From: a virus
Lineage: Duplodnaviria; Caudoviricetes
DNA length: 64,000 bases
Reading direction: 5' to 3' (one strand)
IMG/VR virus record: IMGVR_UViG_3300045596_000094
Span: 64,001 to 128,000 of that record
A program made the translations under genes and the position numbers. The notes under the pieces were generated by a model. It was not told where the DNA came from. It ran no database searches and was given only the letters and a program-made list of their open reading frames with translations. This document shows positions 2,211 through 58,405 of the stretch, in pieces. Position 1 is the stretch's first letter, and each line of letters begins with the position of its first letter.

Positions 2211-2687
2211 TTATTCGCCGGAAGTAGAAAAGAACACCTTTTCAATTGTGGAGAAAAGATCCCCTACAAACGAGATCATATTCGACTTATAGGACTCGCC
2301 CATCATTTCCATTGCCTGTAAATGATAGTTATAAACCAGCCAGTAAGAATAGATCAGTACAATTGCTAGAGCCATAAGAACGTATAGCGTTTTAGATGAC
2401 TGCATATGTGCTTGTAGCGATACACGTTGAGTCTCAAGATGGTTGATGGCATTTAAAATACCCACCATTGTTTTAGGGTCATCCTCTAAGCGGATAGCTC
2501 TATCGAGTTGGTTCTTTTGATCAGTAGTGAGACTGGTGTAAAGGGTTTTCAATTCATTACCGGTGGTTAAGCTGGTAATTTGTTGTTCTCCTTCTAGGTG
2601 ACTATTGATAAGGGTAACGATGACACCACTTTCGATATCGCCTAAACGGATATCCCCTAATTTGTCCCCCAATTGAGTAATGTCCAT
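2211..2687 (-). CDS. Membrane protein with a single C-terminal TM helix
   Basis: Track ORF 2211..2750; start moved to ATG 2687 (MDITQLG) with GAGG SD. Hydrophobic segment LYVLMALAIVLIYSYWLVY. Confidence 0.7.
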   Translation of the reverse strand: MDITQLGDKLGDIRLGDIESGVIVTLINSHLEGEQQITSLTTGNELKTLYTSLTTDQKNQLDRAIRLEDDPKTMVGILNAINHLETQRVSLQAHMQSSKTLYVLMALAIVLIYSYWLVYNYHLQAMEMMGESYKSNMISFVGDLFSTIEKVFFSTSGE

Positions 2688-2701
2688 GAAGACCTCACGA
2701 A

Positions 2702-3250
2702 TTAGATACGGGTTAAGATACTTGCCATATAAAAAGCGTGCCCCACACACATCGAGTCAATTGCATGTTCGTCGTAATCATCGATATTAAAATCGGCTGG
2801 AAGGATTTTAGCGACAGCGGTACGCATGGCATTCTTATCACCATTGTTCCCCTTTACCCCCATTGCTTTCTTTACAGTAGCGGGATCAACCATGTTAAAT
2901 GGTAATAATGGGTTATAAGCGGTAATAGCTTGTTGCATCGCTTGGATACATTCAACTAATGCACTAAAGGCTTGAGGGAAACGCCCCATATACGGGGATT
3001 CAGACACTACTGCCTGAACCTCCCAAGATGCAGCCATTTTAAAAACAGCATCTTTACAAACTTGCATCTTAGCATATCTTAACCCATGAGTCAAGACTAA
3101 ACTATCCCCATAATAGAGATTGGCAAGTTTGTCGATATGGACGGTGGTACTGTGAATAATCCGTTTTTCTCTCGTCGCAAAATCCACGGCATTAATCGTA
3201 AGACCTAATGAGTTAGATCCCGGATCAATGGAAAGATAATAAAACAACAT
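2702..3250 (-). CDS. ruvC: RuvC-like Holliday junction resolvase
   Basis: RNase H-fold catalytic motifs SIDPGS, VVSESPY, PATVKKAMG, DKNAM, DEHAIDS; conserved position in phiKZ-like phages. Confidence 0.85.
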   Translation of the reverse strand: MLFYYLSIDPGSNSLGLTINAVDFATREKRIIHSTTVHIDKLANLYYGDSLVLTHGLRYAKMQVCKDAVFKMAASWEVQAVVSESPYMGRFPQAFSALVECIQAMQQAITAYNPLLPFNMVDPATVKKAMGVKGNNGDKNAMRTAVAKILPADFNIDDYDEHAIDSMCVGHAFYMASILTRI

Positions 3251-3267
3251 CAGCAGTACCTTAAATA

Positions 3268-4200
3268 TTAACGTTGACTTTCAACACCGAATAACGGTTC
3301 TGTTGCCCCAAGGTTGAGACTTAAAGTATATTCTTGGTCAGCGTAAGACAAAGGGATATAAGTTGTAATGTGCACATTGACTTGGCAAGCTACAGCTTCA
3401 AAGAAAGTATTAGCCGGAACATTGATTGGCGTCTGTGCTGAACCAGCTTCAGAAGGGTAACGTTGTTTGATTGGTTTTTCTACCGCAGAACAGATAGCTA
3501 ATTCCGAAATGATCGCCATGCGTTCATTACCAAACATGATACGGCAAGCATCCTTAGCGTCCTGAATATCGTTTTCATCCCACACCAATTGAACAAAAGA
3601 AGATACGGTTGCATACGCACCCTTATATTCAGTTTCCTGCGCATACTTCACAGGACGAAGGTTGTTAATTGTAGGAACAAAAGTTTCTACCACTGACTCG
3701 CCATCAACAATTTTAGTAATTGTGATTTCAGGTGTGGTGCGCGGGAATTCAATTTTGCGTGCGTAGTAAGCTGCGTAAAGAACACCATCTACTTCTACTG
3801 TACGACGCAACGCGTATTTTCGGCGTTCAGCTACGGTTAGGTCATCGTCCGCTTTACGTAGAATAAACGGCATTAAATTGAACAAGCCAGAATCCGTTGC
3901 TTTGTGCGGTACAGGGATCGAATAGGGAACAGCATCGTTTGGATTGTTGATGTTCTCATGACCGCCATTACCGACCACCAAGTATTGAGTAAAAATATTG
4001 TTACTATCTTTATCAAAGTCGTAAGGATCGTAAATCTCCATACCGCGTGTTAAAGGGGTAGGGAGTTTGTTGATGATAGTTGGCTCATTTATCGCTTGGT
4101 TGATGGTTGTATATTCAACTACTACGTGCTTCATACCTAAAGCACGAACAGTCTGAATTGTAGCGCCATAAACCGTACGTGTAATAATACGGGCAGCCAT
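3268..4200 (-). CDS. Conserved phiKZ-like virion structural protein (gp139-like by synteny)
   Basis: Track ORF to 4212; start ATG 4200 with GGAG SD. Motifs RTVYG, VGNGGH, PFILR..DDLT..ER.KY.LR, ISELAICS, LGATEPL, adjacent to RuvC. Confidence 0.7.
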   Translation of the reverse strand: MAARIITRTVYGATIQTVRALGMKHVVVEYTTINQAINEPTIINKLPTPLTRGMEIYDPYDFDKDSNNIFTQYLVVGNGGHENINNPNDAVPYSIPVPHKATDSGLFNLMPFILRKADDDLTVAERRKYALRRTVEVDGVLYAAYYARKIEFPRTTPEITITKIVDGESVVETFVPTINNLRPVKYAQETEYKGAYATVSSFVQLVWDENDIQDAKDACRIMFGNERMAIISELAICSAVEKPIKQRYPSEAGSAQTPINVPANTFFEAVACQVNVHITTYIPLSYADQEYTLSLNLGATEPLFGVESQR

Positions 4201-4788: not shown

Positions 4789-4877
4789 TTCGTTTACCTT
4801 TAATTTTAAAGACTCAGCGCAAACTGCACTAATAGAGGTGTTGCTATTCACATAAATAGTGCAGTCCGCTTTGTTTC

Positions 4878-7800
4878 TTACGGTTCTACTGGTTCTGGAT
4901 CTGGCTCTACTGGTTTAGGAATACAATTCACGTAAACCAGAGGAGACCATAAACCTTTATAAAGCATACGTATCCGTACTTGACGATTCACGGTCGTTGG
5001 GGCGAATGTTAACGTGTTGCCGTTAAACGTCGCTCCGCCACCACTATAGATATCCCATGTAGGTGTGCCGTTATCTAGGGATTCTGGCGGTGTGAGCGTA
5101 TACGATAGATTAATTGGTTCTTCCGGATAGAACGGGTCACCCGGTGGGATAACAATCGCAACAGCTGTAGTTTTAGGGAATGTTGTAAACCATTTCTCCA
5201 CCCATAAACCTCGCATGTACAATCTAATCTTGAACGGCGTTTTTACATCCGCAGTAACAATCAATTGATTTTTATTACGAATCGTTACGCCATTAGGATT
5301 ACCAACAACTGACCAAACAGGATCTTCAGGAAGTTCAGACTTATCAAACGTCAAGGCTCGATACTGTAAAGTTTCGGTTTCCCCTTGGGTTACTTTCTCA
5401 TTCACAATCTCGATGTCATTGGTTGTAAGATTACGCCACACATCGCTGAAATTCACCTGTTTAGCACCGCCTCGCTTATACCCATTTGCAACATCAGTAT
5501 AACTCACCATCACTGCTGTGTGGGTTAATGGATCAGTCACATCAACAACTAATGAACTACTACCATCGTCATTCGGTAAAGAAACTACTTCAGATTGTTT
5601 CTTACCGATAACCACATCGAGGTTATGGTCCGTGTATGTTCTTGATGTTGGATAGATTGTGTACTTAGGTGTAATACGGTATTTATTTCCACCCAGGCTG
5701 GTACGCTTCATCTCATCAATGACCAATATTGAAGCAGCATCAGGAATATCGATATCTGGATGAATTAAGATACGATAATTACGATGTCTTTGTTGACGAC
5801 CATCTTTAGAAACAATTACCATTGAAAAAGAGAAGTCTTCTACACCAGTAATACGATTTCCAATTGTTGGCGTGAACGTAACCAATCCAGCTTTACTCAG
5901 CACCAAACGACCACCACGTAAATTCCAAATCCTACCTGCTGTCCAAGAGAAAGCTAGTAGGGCGTTGTAGTTACGATGGTAAACATCCCAGTCCTGTTGA
6001 TTTTCATCATCTTTGAAAATAGTGAAAACCGGTTTAGAGATATCGCCAGTGATGGAAAGTAAGTTATACTGACGCTGGATATTAGTGGCGTAGATGTATG
6101 GGCGTTTGTCGGTTTCTAGTTCCATACCGATCGATGTATACACAACAGTATACTTCTTCGGTTGTAGTTCTTCGAAAGTATGTGTACTTGTAGGTAGTAC
6201 AGACGCCCCTAAAATTACGGAATCCACTAACTCATCGTTAGCAGTATCATACAACTCCACACGACAAGCATAAGCCAACATATTCTTTACGCGAAAATCG
6301 TGAACAAAGTTAGCAGGTACGGTAAACGACCATGTACCTTCTTTCTGATCAGTTCGATCGGGACGAAGATAACGGGCGCTGGTTGTAGTGTAATACGCAG
6401 TACTTACATTCGCATGATAGACAAACTCTTCTTCCACAATTGTCGGCTTGATTGCCTCTAAAGGGATTTCGATCTTAGAGACCTCATTTCCATTAGCTAC
6501 GTAAATTGAATCAGTTTTACCACTATATGCGCCTGTCGATAGATCTGGATGATACATTATCCCTGAATCGGTGAGCTCGACCTGACTTCCAAACAAAGTG
6601 GTAAACTTTGTATTTTTATCGAATGGTACGTAAACCCCGTTCTTATTGATACGTAAGGTATCAAGATTCAAACCAGAAAGATCGGCGTTCAAAAGAGTGG
6701 GTTCATTTGGTGTGATTGCGTCACGCTCTAACAATGTCGGAGAAATACCCGATAAACCAGCTTGACCATTCTCGTAGTATTGTTTCTTCAACGCCATTTC
6801 ATACTTACCACCCACAATGTTCGCCATCTTCCCTTGAGAGGCATAACTTGGATAGTCCGTATCATGAACATAAACACCAGTTTCTGTATGTTTAATGCGT
6901 TGACGCCATGTTAGGTTATTTTCGCCACCGTACCACGTAATCTCAGGTGAGATTAGTGTTTTACTAATATCCCATTTAAGATTATACTCATAACCCGTTC
7001 CTGGATATCCTTGGAACGCATTGTCCGCAGCATTACGAACAAACGTAAGTAACGAAGGCTTGCGGAACATGGTGATATATTTAGCAGCTCTACCGGAACG
7101 TAACGGGTTTGGTAGATAAACGAAATCTTCGTCTGGGTTTCCTAAAGTAAATACAAACTCTAGATTCTCACGAGATTTGGTTTCCAACTGCCAACGCTCA
7201 GCAAACCCGGCTTGGTCTGGGTAGTCACCAGCAGTGGTTGTCCAATACGTCGCAGGTAACATGACATCGATTCGGAGAGAACCGACTGTGATATAGAAAC
7301 GCCCAACCCCTGCATTTGCAGTTGCTGAATTGACATCTAGAGGCATCTTCACTGTAAAGGTTACTGTACCGTTAGAGTTCATTCGATACTGACCAACATC
7401 CTGATTTGATGCCCAGTAGTCAGCGCTACCGAAACCATTTAATTGGGTAGCTGTCCCCTGATGCCAATAAACGATACTTAATGCGTACGACTTATCTCCT
7501 AAATATTTAGGGAAAGAAGCTGCAGTATTTGCTACAGTCGCATTAACGGCATGGACACAAACCTTCGCATCCACGTAGTTTGTTGTACCCATTCCAGTAG
7601 TTGATGAGATACCTAATCGAACGATACGTTCATGCTCTTCTGGTGACTGGAAACGTACGAAGTTATTAATCGCATACGTCACAGAAGTCGCGAAGTCTTT
7701 TAATGTTGGTGCTGGAACACCTTCCTCAAATGCTTCGTAATAAAGCAAAATAGACTGCTCACCCATCGAGTCATCGCCGGTTTGAACATAACCATGATAG

Positions 7801-37215: not shown

Positions 37216-37245
37216 ATTCACTACGATAGTGTAGATGTGAAATTA
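37216..37245 (-). promoter_or_regulatory. Early-type phage RNAP promoter motif, degenerate copy
   Basis: Plus ATTCActacgATAGTGTAgATGTGAAAtTA aligns ungapped to the 35-bp repeat. Confidence 0.6.
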
Positions 37246-44041: not shown

Positions 44042-45583
44042 TTGGATACTAAACTGCTACTTGTGCGAATCATTACTCTATTATTCATAGAGTCGCACTT
44101 AAACAAAAAAGGAAATTCCAATTCCCGCGTAATTGTGCGCGACGCACTCTCATATATTAAAGCACCCGAAGCAGCGGTGATTGCTGATTTATCTAAAGAC
44201 TCTACTGCAAAATTACGTGACGTTATTGTTTGGCTTTTAGAACTTCCTTCAAACGAAGAAGTGGATCGCGATGATTTATTAAATCGTGTACGTATCGCAA
44301 CCGCTGAAGAAGAATATATTTTTGAATCTATCTTTGCGAATATTGGTAACCCGCAAACAGACGAACCAGAAATGAAACGTATCGCTAAACGCGAACGTGA
44401 TGAAATCAATATCTTTATTAACCGTTCTTTGGTTATGGGCATTGTTAAAGAAGCATATCAACTCTCACACTACAAACCTGATGCGGTGGATTGGTCAAGT
44501 TTCTCTAAGGAGTTAATCAATAAGTTAGAACCGTATAAAAGTTTGGCTGAACGTGATTCTGCAACATTAGTAGAATCTATCGATTTGACAGATCCGAAAA
44601 GTTTGGCTGAATCGTTTAGAAATAGTTTATCTGAAATTAATCCGGAAGGTATTATTAAATTTGGTTGGCAGGGTTTCAACCGTATGTTCGGTGAACAGGG
44701 CGGTGGTCGTCGAGGTGAATTTATTGTTCTTGGTGCTTTGCAGCATAACTTTAAATCAGGTACGTCTTTAGAGATGGTAAAAGCTGCGGCGCTATATAAC
44801 CGTCCATGGATGATTGACCCCAGTAAGAAACCTTTGATTCTTCGTTATAGTTTTGAGAACTCTGCAATTGTAGATATCATGCATATCTACAAATCGTTAG
44901 TAGAGGCTGAAACGAAGATGATTGTAGATCAAAATACTATTGATCCGATTGCTGCAGCTATTTACGTCGCTGAGAAATTGGGTGTAAATGGTTACTCGGT
45001 TCAAATACAACACCATAACCCTTCTGACTTTACTTACTCTAAACTCTTTGATGATATTGAAGCTTGGGAAAATAAAGGATATGAGATTCATATGTTGAAT
45101 CTGGATTATCTCGCTATGATCTCAACTAAAGGCTGTAAGCAGGGTGCAACGGGTCAAGACATTCGCGACCTATTTAGACGCGTTCGTAACTTTACTTCAG
45201 CGCGTAAGATCTTAACGATCACTCCACACCAGTTATCTGTAGACGCTAAGAAGAAAACTCGTGAAGGGGTGGAAGACTTTGTACGTGAAATTGCGAACAA
45301 AGGTTACTGGGATAGTTGTTCTACAATTGACCAAGAAGTCGATATGGAAATCTATCAACATCTTGTAGTGATCAACGGTGAAACGTACGTGACCTGGATG
45401 CGTGGTAAGCATCGTAAATCTGGTACACCGACACCGCATGAACATTACTACACCGTTTACAAGTTTGCGCCAGTTGGATTTATTCCAGATGATGTATTAG
45501 GTGCAGATATGTCACGTAAACGAGTAGCCGCAGCTACGGCTTCTGATGGAGGTCAAACCGCATGGTTCGATATGGCAGCGTAA
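44042..45583 (+). CDS. dnaB: DnaB-like replicative helicase (phiKZ gp118-like)
   Basis: GWQGFNRM.G..GG.RRGE, variant Walker A GALQHNFKSG, SFEN, LDYL, TPHQLS, QEVD, RGKHR; TTG start with TAAGGAG SD. Confidence 0.9.
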   Translation: MDTKLLLVRIITLLFIESHLNKKGNSNSRVIVRDALSYIKAPEAAVIADLSKDSTAKLRDVIVWLLELPSNEEVDRDDLLNRVRIATAEEEYIFESIFANIGNPQTDEPEMKRIAKRERDEINIFINRSLVMGIVKEAYQLSHYKPDAVDWSSFSKELINKLEPYKSLAERDSATLVESIDLTDPKSLAESFRNSLSEINPEGIIKFGWQGFNRMFGEQGGGRRGEFIVLGALQHNFKSGTSLEMVKAAALYNRPWMIDPSKKPLILRYSFENSAIVDIMHIYKSLVEAETKMIVDQNTIDPIAAAIYVAEKLGVNGYSVQIQHHNPSDFTYSKLFDDIEAWENKGYEIHMLNLDYLAMISTKGCKQGATGQDIRDLFRRVRNFTSARKILTITPHQLSVDAKKKTREGVEDFVREIANKGYWDSCSTIDQEVDMEIYQHLVVINGETYVTWMRGKHRKSGTPTPHEHYYTVYKFAPVGFIPDDVLGADMSRKRVAAATASDGGQTAWFDMAA

Positions 45584-47485: not shown

Positions 47486-47515
47486 ATAGAGTAGTGCCCT
47501 AGGGCACTACTCTAT
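47486..47515. terminator. Perfect 30-bp palindrome (CCCTAGGG family)
   Basis: ATAGAGTAGTGCCCTAGGGCACTACTCTAT, followed by TTATG on the minus strand. Confidence 0.75.
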
Positions 47516-56529: not shown

Positions 56530-57045
56530 CTACCCTTTAACAAACTCTTTCTCGACCAACTGGTCGATATGGAGATTCACCCAACTCAAGAAACCGAAAG
56601 CTGTCCATTCACTGGTCTCTGGATCGTCATGTGCTTTACAACAGCAACAAAGGTAATAATCTACAATCTTTGCAAACATCTCATCGTCTAGATGAGTTTC
56701 ATTCTTACATTCAATCAATGCAGTTTTCACAAAAGAGGAGATGTCATCCCCTACGGCATTGTAAACCCAATCTTGCCCTTTTACTTCAACTAAGCGTTTC
56801 ATTACCCAATCGAAACAATCATCAGAATAGATCTCTATCTTCCTTCTAAAAGCCAACAGCATAACCCCAGAAACACCATACATCAAAGGGATTAACTTCT
56901 CCACCCCCACCTGATACATCTTGTTAGCCAAATCGCTTCCTAAACCTACCCCTCTCAAAGGTTTCAATACCTTCTCTATATAGTGTTTCCAGATACAGTA
57001 CAAAACCAACACAAATCCAGCAACCAACATAATCTTCAACAACAT
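56530..57045 (-). CDS. Membrane-anchored hypothetical protein
   Basis: N-terminal TM segment IMLVAGFVLVLYCIW; G-rich SD. Confidence 0.65.
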   Translation of the reverse strand: MLLKIMLVAGFVLVLYCIWKHYIEKVLKPLRGVGLGSDLANKMYQVGVEKLIPLMYGVSGVMLLAFRRKIEIYSDDCFDWVMKRLVEVKGQDWVYNAVGDDISSFVKTALIECKNETHLDDEMFAKIVDYYLCCCCKAHDDPETSEWTAFGFLSWVNLHIDQLVEKEFVKG

Positions 57046-57685
57046 AATCCCATCCCCCTCTAGATTACCAGGACAATCTATACCCAGTCATTAAACATAG
57101 CATTCTTCTACTTAGATTATATTTTAATCAATCTAGAGCTTTACCCTAAAGGAAGCTCTAGTATCTAAGTACTCATCTCTCTAGAATCGCAACACCCTAC
57201 ATCAATCTAATTTCTCCACCCATCCCATACCGAGTGAGAATCTCTACCCTAGTAGAGAGATTCGATACTCTCTATCTCCTCACCGTAAGTTCACATACGT
57301 TCCTTACTCTAAGGAGTAGAGTATCTCATCAGTAGAATCTGAGTTAGAAATCTCCCCCAGACCCCCTCTAGTATATCTGTAGTATTAGTCTAGTATACTC
57401 TATCATTACTACTCTAATCTCTACTCTATTACTAATCTCTTTATATTAATAAAGAGGAGATTTCCTTCGGATCTCCTCTCCTTCTTCTTATCCCACATAT
57501 TTGCCCCCATGATCCCCCATCGCTGGAGGTGGATTAATTACATAGTAATAGTGTACTAATAAAAAATTACTTTATTGAAAAAATAAAAATAAATAAAAGT
57601 TAGAGAGTAGAACCCCGAAGGATTCTACTCTAAGTGGATTAAGATTCTTTTAGTTCAGGTACGAAGTTAGTGGTATTTACTACCC
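57046..57685. other. Long structured non-coding region (candidate replication origin or ncRNA/leader)
   Basis: No ORF of 60 aa or more; several hairpins, TACTCTA repeats, strong C>G skew, AT-rich tract. Confidence 0.5.
57604..57631 (-). terminator. cUUCGg intrinsic terminator with long U tract
   Basis: Minus AGAGTAGAATCC-TTCG-GGGTTCTACTCT then CTAACTTTTATTTATTTTT. Confidence 0.85.
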
Positions 57686-58405
57686 TCAGCTTTCTACACC
57701 TAAAACATCTTTCTTCTGTTTGAAATGCATCCAGGAAATTTGCTCGTCATTAAAACCATGTTCAAGCAAAAAGTTTTTTGCTGCCTCTTCGTCCGTAAAG
57801 AATCGAATATCCCCATTTTCATCCAGAATGTACTCGTGCGGGTTTATAGTGATGCCATTTATATTGCGTGCGATACATACGTTCATTTGAGTTCCTTGTT
57901 GGTTTGTTGCGCGTTTGAAGATGGTCTTGACTTCAGTTGACACCGAGTTTGTATCTGTGACTGGATACGCGATTTCCATATCTAAATGGAGATGCAGATC
58001 CAGGATAACTTGACATTCATCTTGGGCTAACCCAGTAATAATGAGTGATCCCCAATTACTGCGGTCTAGATGTCCACGTAAGCTTTCAATAACTTTCTTA
58101 CGATAACGTACAGCGTTCTCGTAGAAATAAGAGTTATGTTCCTGTAGGTGATTAATAGGTTGAAATTCCAGATGTAAGAGAGAACACTGGATACCTTCTA
58201 GTTGCGTAAGTAAATTATCCTGCCAGTCACCGACTGTAGCTGTTGGAAGAACAACATGTAGAGGTGTTAGATTTGGATCGAAATCCAAATCTACTTCCTC
58301 AGCATATTGGCGGAATTCTTCCCAGAACCAAAAACGGAAACCGACGTTACCGCTTAGTTTATTTTGATCAGCCATACCAGTTGTAAGGGCGATAATTTTA
58401 GCCAT
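57686..58405 (-). CDS. Hypothetical protein: paralog of 58448..58933 fused to a 66-aa module with its own SD/ATG (57886)
   Basis: Shared ATVG, L.HL.FQP, YE..V.YR, SNW....TGL..DEC, F.RAT; internal AAGGA-N6-ATG. Confidence 0.75.
   Translation of the reverse strand: MAKIIALTTGMADQNKLSGNVGFRFWFWEEFRQYAEEVDLDFDPNLTPLHVVLPTATVGDWQDNLLTQLEGIQCSLLHLEFQPINHLQEHNSYFYENAVRYRKKVIESLRGHLDRSNWGSLIITGLAQDECQVILDLHLHLDMEIAYPVTDTNSVSTEVKTIFKRATNQQGTQMNVCIARNINGITINPHEYILDENGDIRFFTDEEAAKNFLLEHGFNDEQISWMHFKQKKDVLGVES

Follow-up and report, generated by a model that had tools for sequence, protein, structure and literature searches.

A conserved, structured non-coding element at the head of a virion-gene block in a distant phiKZ-like jumbo phage

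Very little is known about the non-coding elements of nucleus-forming jumbo phages, and the literature searched contained no description of a replication origin or priming mechanism for this group. Phage-associated structured non-coding RNAs of large size include GOLLD, ROOL and HEARO, whose function is not known, and the processive antitermination RNAs lambda nut and HK022 put are 20-70 nt long with defined motifs. We know of no antitermination factor for this phage group. Small RNAs derived from 5'UTRs by premature termination are known in phages 201phi2-1 and phiKZ (PMC11512511). For DNA synthesis, a 2026 preprint (PMC13648698) describes chimalliviruses as lacking any recognisable primase, with RNase H forming part of the polymerase complex, and suggests RNA-DNA hybrids as a possible start of their replication. 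The locus described here adds a tangible candidate that is conserved, occurs in single copy and has an anatomy that can be defined.

The locus was found in a 64,000-nucleotide stretch of DNA (the window) that corresponds to bases 64,001-128,000 of a virus record that is 269,038 bp long and bears direct terminal repeats. Genes in the window include those for phiKZ-type internal head proteins (PF12699) and a 537-aa gp98-like protein, a homologue of phiKZ gp98 and 201phi2-1 gp161 with at most 28% identity to any cultured phage. With head proteins of this type and a gp98 homologue this divergent, the source is, by its gene content, an uncultivated, distant phiKZ-like (chimallivirus-type) jumbo phage. 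A greedy ORF map of the whole genome placed 252 of 286 ORFs on the minus strand, which also carries all genes near the locus. The locus itself is a 640-bp gap (57046-57685) between the minus-strand genes 57686-58405 and 56530-57045. It had been called the longest gene-free stretch in the window, and the statement holds genome-wide, as 640 bp tops all ORF-free stretches in the 269-kb genome and the next longest measures 457 bp. That runner-up (genome positions 198331-198787, outside the window) also has an elevated CTCTA count, and nhmmer detected no similarity between it and the 640-bp element. The locus is single copy and lies at 45% of genome length; an nhmmer profile of the element identified no second copy in the genome. 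No replication gene adjoins the gap, and the flanking genes are without family match or orphans.

Immediately downstream on the minus strand is the gene for a 171-aa, N-terminally anchored membrane protein, which together with its Shine-Dalgarno sequence AGAGGGGGA occupies 56530-57062 and through which a G>C skew runs. This protein is fast-evolving (32% identity to its L054 homologue versus 73% for the neighbouring gp98), and a CCCC motif is present in its gene (56530-57045, minus strand). A spanin pair was considered and rejected, as the downstream proteins bear no resemblance to one. Elsewhere in the window, a 513-aa ORF (44042-45583, plus strand) lies between a thymidylate-kinase-like gene and the major-capsid region, and the syntenic position in a relative, L059, is occupied by a gene for a DnaB-like helicase (PF20307).

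All six reading frames are closed in the gap, where the longest open stretch is about 38 codons, and neither tblastx nor blastn detected a paralogue of the locus within the genome. G-tract lengths and indels differ between lineages by non-multiples of three. Because the frames are closed, protein similarity is lacking and the differences between lineages break the frame, the locus is, on these grounds, neither a protein-coding gene nor a pseudogene. Two candidate leader peptides (an ATG after the G tracts and a UUG-UAG after block A, described below) were rejected because their frame is not conserved. Searches for known RNA families were also negative: Rfam 15 returned 0 matches in the window at the gathering threshold, the best match at E<=10 scored 24 bits against a threshold of 50, and no tRNA or tmRNA was found at the locus. 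No match turned up when the locus was compared by megablast and blastn with 50,697 phage records. A hammerhead ribozyme, considered for the word CUGAUGAG, was rejected, as C3 and U4 are not conserved and Rfam gave no match. The locus is a real, conserved, previously undescribed non-coding element of no known family. The first-pass annotation had described it as a structured non-coding locus, and this description was borne out: we observed a defined anatomy, conservation, hairpins with compensatory changes and an absence of coding potential.

Relatives were reached via gp98-like homologues (70-74% identity) on metagenomic contigs from several samples; ERR11489690, SRR32369627 and SRR23730276 are among the samples in which these phages occur. 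One more, L031, was added by a metagenome scan with block A, which returned 39 stretches, one of them genuine, whereas scans of IMG/VR with the gp98-like protein and with an invariant 21-mer of the element yielded no relatives. The resulting six lineages (the window with L002 and L055-57; L003/4; L005-8; L010; L031; and L054/L009) carry the locus at an identical position, between a variable island of small orphan genes on one side and the N-anchored membrane-protein gene followed by the gp98 block on the other. Their gene-free gap measures 447-646 bp and is alignable over roughly 320-480 nt. Over shared columns the element is 65-78% identical between lineages. By contrast, when the window is compared with the other lineages at four-fold sites of the neighbouring gp98 gene, identity is only 31-38%, which amounts to saturation. 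Blocks of 21-22 nt and a 28-nt terminator hairpin (T1) are invariant, with variable inserts between them, and this mosaic points to selection rather than recent transfer or exchange, which argues for an element conserved under selection.

These comparisons bear on the plainest alternative, that the gap is an ordinary boundary made up of a terminator, one or two promoters and a functionless spacer. Intergenic DNA of this phage is generally organised as terminator-plus-TATG cassettes, and conservation is poor over the 3' 180 nt of the gap, both of which would be expected of such a boundary. However, about 320 nt are retained at the identity given above in spite of saturated neutral sites, the 21-22-nt blocks do not vary, hairpins carry compensatory changes, and no other intergenic region of the genome exceeds 457 bp. 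We therefore consider an ordinary boundary very unlikely.

T1 (57604-57631, minus strand), identified by a terminator scan, is the terminator hairpin of the upstream accessory island, with a 12-bp stem, a UUCG loop and a T-rich tail. Its 28 nt are 100% identical in 7 lineages despite differing upstream genes, and it is one of about nine GAGTAG...CTACTC palindromes in the genome. A TACTCTA word previously assigned to the locus does occur here (57626), but the region 57604-57631 belongs to the upstream gene's terminator, with UUCG on the minus strand. Members of this palindromic terminator family are intergenic (47489-47512, 57605-57630 and seven more genome sites), have the stem base (A)TAGAGTAG...CTACTCTA(T), and are usually followed by TTTATG; the sole reversed palindrome in the genome (TACTCTA-loop-TAGAGTA) lies within the element at 57305-57323. 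Around ten copies of an AT-rich promoter-like cassette (...aattaaaatattttcaNataTACACTATnaanttGAAT) directly follow terminator palindromes and head accessory-gene islands, including minus-strand copies in the window at 37226, 47448 and 60662 and a copy in L005 at 1969.

The island upstream of T1 differs even between the closest relatives. L002 is 99.4% identical to the window leftward from 57631, and similarity breaks abruptly exactly at T1, upstream of which L002 has two genes (177 and 179 aa; region 2278-3362) where the window has a 239-aa gene (region 57632-58405). By this comparison, the accessory island is exchanged at the T1 boundary. In relatives, the variable island adjoining the element on its upstream side contains genes resembling HNH/NUMOD4 homing endonucleases (L003:2250-2879, L004:2835-3464, L005:5290-5904, and L054:106-708 and 4809-5441); the island of the window has none.

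Between T1 and a promoter-like site lies a T/A-rich tract (57556-57603, minus strand) whose length varies among relatives, with insertions in L003/L005 and a large deletion in L010. An AT-rich tract at 57556-57600 had been proposed as an unwinding element; the tract is present (A+T 44/50 in 57550-57599), but the role is not supported, as the tract is variable and lies upstream of the promoter. The putative promoter, P1 (57538-57555, minus strand), consists of TACACTAT at 57548-57555 and TATGTAA at 57538-57544, with a putative start near 57541. The leftward promoter-core match at 57548-57555 was confirmed (ATAGTGTA at 57548, which reads TACACTAT on the minus strand). Across the genome, TACACTAT has 16 minus-strand copies and a single plus-strand copy, with a shared AT-rich context, and the copy in P1 is one of a class of about ten AT-rich sites found at the heads of accessory islands. 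The site was thus correctly placed, but the word conserved in relatives is (A)GTATGTAA (57538-57544) rather than TACACTAT, a point that counts against the RNA reading favoured below; AGTATGTAA at P1 is invariant among relatives.

TATGTAA is 11-fold enriched in upstream intergenic DNA, and TATG is characteristic of late promoters in phiKZ. Elsewhere on the minus strand, TATGTAA occurs at ten intergenic sites that lie 22-95 nt ahead of a start codon, compared to 499 nt here. Since normal phiKZ 5'UTRs measure 31-40 nt (PMC8244752), a 499-nt leader would be exceptional, at about ten times the normal length. A second candidate promoter, P2 (TATGTTTAAT, 57090-57099, minus strand), is located 10 nt past the last hairpin of the element and 51 nt before the start codon, a spacing typical of the TATG sites of this phage, and TTTTATGTTTA at this site is common to L003/4 and L005-8. 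Gene orientation and promoter words together point to leftward transcription through the gap.

Each of the hairpins reported by the first-pass annotation, at 57109-57171 (nested), 57238-57263 and 57264-57325, was recovered, and the overlapping stems at 57437-57456 and 57453-57479 were confirmed by direct reading. Proceeding leftward from P1, a CU-rich tract (CCACCTCC) and then G-tract pair 1 (G5-N5-G5) occupy 57500-57532 (minus strand), where a hairpin, Ha, is possible through CUCC:GGGG pairing with G-U pairs; covariation is absent. H2 (57453-57479, minus strand) is a terminator-like hairpin of 10-12 bp with the invariant loop CCGAAGG, followed by UUUAU. Three of its pairs are altered on both sides, a result equalled by 1 of 500 shuffles, and paired cells make up 98.6% of the H2 helix and 95.6% of the two-helix structure. 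H3, a weak alternative stem (CTCTTTAT/ATAAAGAG, 57437-57456, minus strand), overlaps the 3' arm of H2; its AAGAGA is nearly invariant, and L003 has an altered H2 arm without a matching change in H3.

Further leftward is a long irregular hairpin, P1-P2-P3 (57264-57328, minus strand; GATACTCT/CTCCTT/GTAAG...CTTAC/AGGAG/AGAGTATC), whose fold was predicted independently in 8 sequences and whose previously noted closing stem at 57264-57325, GATACTCT/AGAGTATC, was verified. It is followed by P4 (GAATCTC..TAC / GTA..GAGATTC, 57238-57263, minus strand), where an A-U pair is replaced by G-C in L005-8 as a compensatory change; this hairpin is missing in L010, L031 and L054. The nested hairpin H5 (57109-57171, minus strand) lies in the poorly conserved 3' part and has the inner stem CTAGAGCTT/AAGCTCTAG, in place of which other lineages have TAGATGCT/AGCATCTA. 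When the H5 region of the lineages was compared sequence by sequence, the hairpin was present, with both arms changed, in the window, L003/4, L010, L031, L054 and L009, and absent in L005-8.

Repeated words and invariant blocks lie among these hairpins. TACTCTA at 57305, 57396, 57410, 57422 and 57626 and TAGAGTA at 57317 were found as previously listed. Five of the 24 genomic copies of TACTCTA fall within these 640 of 269,038 bp (about 0.06 expected; approximately 50-fold enriched), as do 12 of the 278 copies of CTCTA (about 0.7 expected). A zone of UAGAGUAG-type repeats (57372-57436, minus strand) is purine/U-rich and the most variable part of the element, and contains a small hairpin whose stem differs among lineages. 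Block A (CTAGAGGGGGT-S-TGGGGGAGAT, 57350-57371, minus strand) constitutes G-tract pair 2 and is invariant in all lineages, including L009 and L010. The invariant 21-mer TACTCTACTCCTTAGAGTAAG (57303-57323) sits inside the P1-P3 hairpin and could alternatively fold as TACTCTA-CUCCU-TAGAGTA or pair with block A.

The TACTCTA words had been interpreted as iterons, an interpretation that we do not uphold, as the zone 57372-57436 is the least conserved and its spacings are irregular (12 and 14 nt). An origin of the iteron type was accordingly rejected; the AT tract is variable and no initiator gene is linked, and a classical iteron and unwinding-element origin fails because its supposed parts are the least conserved ones. 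The proposed kinship of the repeat with the palindrome family was upheld, as about nine ordinary terminator palindromes elsewhere in the genome have TACTCTA/TAGAGTA words at the base of their stems. In a broader DNA-level reading, the locus would be a protein-binding site (an iteron origin, a centromere or nucleus anchor, or a recombination boundary) in which these words and palindromes act as duplex or cruciform. This would fit the enrichment of TACTCTA, the strand symmetry of many of the inverted repeats, fold z-scores on the plus strand that are equal or better, the sequence invariance of T1 and two blocks beyond what pure structure needs, and the fact that the window and L002 cease to be similar exactly at T1. 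However, the repeat zone is the most variable and its spacing irregular, the same words serve ordinary terminators, and the changes in H2, P4 and H5 keep pairing rather than sequence. Since there is also no binding-protein gene candidate linked to the gap, where the flanking proteins are orphans, we regard a DNA-level site as quite doubtful.

Which strand the structure belongs to was considered separately. Compared to dinucleotide shuffles, both strands fold better (z -3.1 and -4.4), and across six lineages the z-scores range from -1.2 to -4.8 (plus strand, -3.5 to -4.8; minus strand, -1.2 to -4.3). Thermodynamic z-scores fail to assign the strand, with stronger values for the plus strand. The terminator scan scored H2 on the plus strand only, where the loop reads C(UUCG)G and a pyrimidine tail follows; its minus-strand tail is UUUAUUAAU, and neither H2 nor H5 has a real U tract on the minus strand. 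The functional RNA could instead be a C-rich plus-strand transcript, an antisense or SD-targeting sRNA ending at H2, as suggested by this terminator call with its invariant loop, by the plus-strand z-scores, and by C-runs complementary to G-rich SD-like sites. Against this, the surrounding transcription is all leftward, G-U positions would turn into A-C mismatches, and within the gap no rightward-facing site of the TACACTAT, TATGTAA or sigma-70-like kind is present. Nor was any plus-strand promoter-like word found for the antisense partner of the first-pass annotation. A plus-strand RNA of this kind seems highly improbable.

In the minus-strand reading, the Ha and H2 helices contain 18 G-U cells, and A-C combinations among the six unpaired cells number 0. 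Two pairings are available on the minus strand only, that of the CU tract with the G tract and that of block A with the 21-mer via four G-U pairs; because the sequences are invariant, these pairings and the P1-P3 hairpin lie beyond a covariation test. The compensated hairpins are Watson-Crick palindromes and could therefore equally form on the plus strand or in DNA. Taken with the plus-strand z-scores, this leaves structure alone compatible with a DNA-level or plus-strand role.

Considering these points together, we tentatively favour a phage-promoter-driven, minus-strand, structured, G-rich RNA some 0.4-0.5 kb in length, which would be a long leader or else a non-coding RNA standing alone, while holding this reading with a little less than even confidence. 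The candidate RNA would precede two membrane-protein genes and the gp98-like virion block. We infer its transcription, strand, end and role from the anatomy of the locus and its setting. A structured RNA of about 500 nt had been offered as the alternative to an origin with iterons and an unwinding element, and it is this alternative that we retain; the small RNAs derived from 5'UTRs in 201phi2-1 and phiKZ offer a precedent for it.

In the proposed mechanism, T1 (57631-57604) would close the variable accessory island, and P1 (TACACTAT...TATGTAA, start near 57541) would launch the G-rich, C-poor RNA of about 0.4-0.5 kb. The RNA may then fold into local hairpins (Ha, H2, the long P1-P3, P4 and H5) and expose invariant G tracts, single-stranded or alternatively paired, along with UAGAGUA/UACUCUA words. 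It could continue into the membrane-protein genes and the gp98-like virion block, serving them as a leader of unusual length, or it could stop at H2 or H5 as a stand-alone non-coding RNA, with the genes using the proximal TATG site at 57099-57096. Its most likely role would be to control expression at the junction between accessory island and conserved block, acting in cis or as a factor-binding RNA. Possible routes are attenuation or antitermination, that is, control of termination and read-through, or titration of a stem-recognising factor. We prefer attenuation or antitermination because the conserved words are the stem bases of the phage's terminator palindromes, a sharing that hints at a tie to termination control, and because the locus marks the transition from a terminated accessory island to a long block of virion genes.

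The distribution of G tracts and strand skew adds a further dimension. Only two G5-N(1-7)-G5 pairs occur in the 269-kb genome, both in the gap, and 5 of the 50 minus-strand G5 runs of the genome lie within 200 nt downstream of P1. The window has G5-N3/5-G5 pairs about 140 nt apart rather than four contiguous G tracts, and the tracts are kept across lineages while loops and tract lengths (5-6 G) vary. All of the twelve most G>C-skewed 400-nt windows in the genome are found here. On the RNA-like strand the skew begins to climb at the promoter, reaches a maximum of 0.5-0.6 and then declines across the 171-aa gene over about 1.2 kb; L003, L005, L010 and L054 have the same profile, starting at the promoter. 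The coding sequence of the 171-aa gene has a skew of 0.43, the most extreme G>C value seen in any gene of the genome, compared to at most 0.19 in the other genes listed, and +0.33 at four-fold sites (genome mean -0.03, sd 0.23), with the skew lying mostly at codon positions 1 and 2. G content is 24%, and the skew is mainly C depletion. Cumulative GC skew has no origin-like inflection at the locus, as the curve follows gene orientation. The continuation of the skew through the downstream coding sequence is unexplained by a purely RNA-level role, and the preferred RNA reading leaves both this skew and the persistence of the G tracts unaccounted for.

A transcription-primed origin, unlikely in our estimate, is the most interesting remaining possibility for the locus. 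The P1 transcript would nucleate at the G tracts a stable RNA:DNA hybrid that extends through the G-rich, C-poor zone of about 1.2 kb, a course of events to which we give perhaps one chance among several. The replisome's own RNase H would trim the hybrid to a primer, as in ColE1 RNA II, T4 oriF/oriG and mitochondrial CSBII. The locus could then be the replication initiation zone of the clade, a role we consider possible but not probable, with an R-loop, perhaps quadruplex-stabilised, on the C-depleted non-template strand and RNase H making the leading-strand primer. The priming transcript of the first-pass annotation would survive here in another form, resting on conserved G tracts past a promoter-like site and the most extreme skew, but without its iteron and unwinding setting.

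Loci in two more distant relatives are pertinent to an R-loop origin. The nhmmer profile of the element detected no homologue in L011-L014, but L011 (1400-1700) and L013 (2380-2700), with gp98 proteins 54-58% identical, have a similarly laid-out element elsewhere in the same region, comprising a T-rich tract, a promoter-like word, a C-rich tract, four G tracts, a purine-rich spacer, a hairpin and repeats. Their G tracts are contiguous (G4-AU-G5-N3/4-G5-N2/3-G4/6), which is a canonical quadruplex motif, and they have a long hairpin whose loop is conserved and whose stem is compensated at many positions, a UUAGUA-type (TTAGTA) repeat array and a local skew peak. Homology to the window element is suggested solely by layout, and an IMG/VR scan with the four-G-tract motif of L011/L013 returned 41 stretches, none related. 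L059, a relative at 40% identity, has no comparable gap within 10 kb of its gp98 gene. Paired G5 tracts are essentially absent from five cultured chimallivirus-type genomes, which indicates that the element is specific to this clade.

An R-loop origin would draw together several of these observations: the genome's only paired G5 tracts and a tenth of its minus-strand G5 runs just past P1, a non-template strand that is G-clustered and G>C-skewed past the start, a skew that begins at the promoter in the window and in four further sequences, and G tracts that persist despite changing loops and lengths. A conserved promoter-like word in the orientation that such an origin would call for is a candidate start of the transcript. 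An R-loop origin would also be consistent with the single copy of the locus, the four contiguous G tracts and skew peak of L011 and L013, and the combination of no primase with a replisome RNase H in chimalliviruses (PMC13648698). However, cumulative skew tracks gene orientation without inflection, the AT tract is not conserved, and 24% G is far below classical R-loop zones, the skew being mostly C depletion at codon positions 1 and 2. The absence of comparable paired G tracts from the cultured genomes, and of such a gap near gp98 in L059, means that this would be at best a clade-specific origin. By analogy with ColE1 RNA II, which is both, an R-loop origin may be compatible with a structured transcript. 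If true, it would explain how primase-less chimalliviruses begin DNA synthesis; if the element is merely a regulatory leader or non-coding RNA, it would still represent a new RNA family.

Among known systems, GOLLD, ROOL and HEARO resemble the locus as conserved, several-hundred-nucleotide, multi-hairpin RNAs (here a candidate) on phages, but the Rfam scan gave no match to them, and covariation in the window element is confined to local hairpins in six lineages. Lambda nut and HK022 put likewise place a structured RNA just past a promoter, at the head of a long operon with terminator-like hairpins, but their defined motifs are absent from the window element. ColE1 RNA II, the T4 oriF/oriG R-loops (PMC3016281) and mitochondrial LSP-CSBII combine a promoter, a structured transcript of several hundred nucleotides and non-template G runs, as proposed for the window locus, and RNase H is available in the chimallivirus replisome. 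The window locus differs from them in its modest G density and lack of homology. Nearest in setting are 201phi2-1 sRNA005 and the phiKZ sRNA upstream of gp182 (PMC11512511). The locus sets them apart, as these sRNAs lie upstream of gp182 whereas the window element heads the gp98-like block, is about five times longer, and has G tracts and extreme skew; paired G tracts of the window type were not found in 201phi2-1 or a phiKZ-type genome. In common with the window element as read here, they have a jumbo-phage promoter with a hairpin close behind it, a short structured RNA before virion genes, and a position conserved between related phages.
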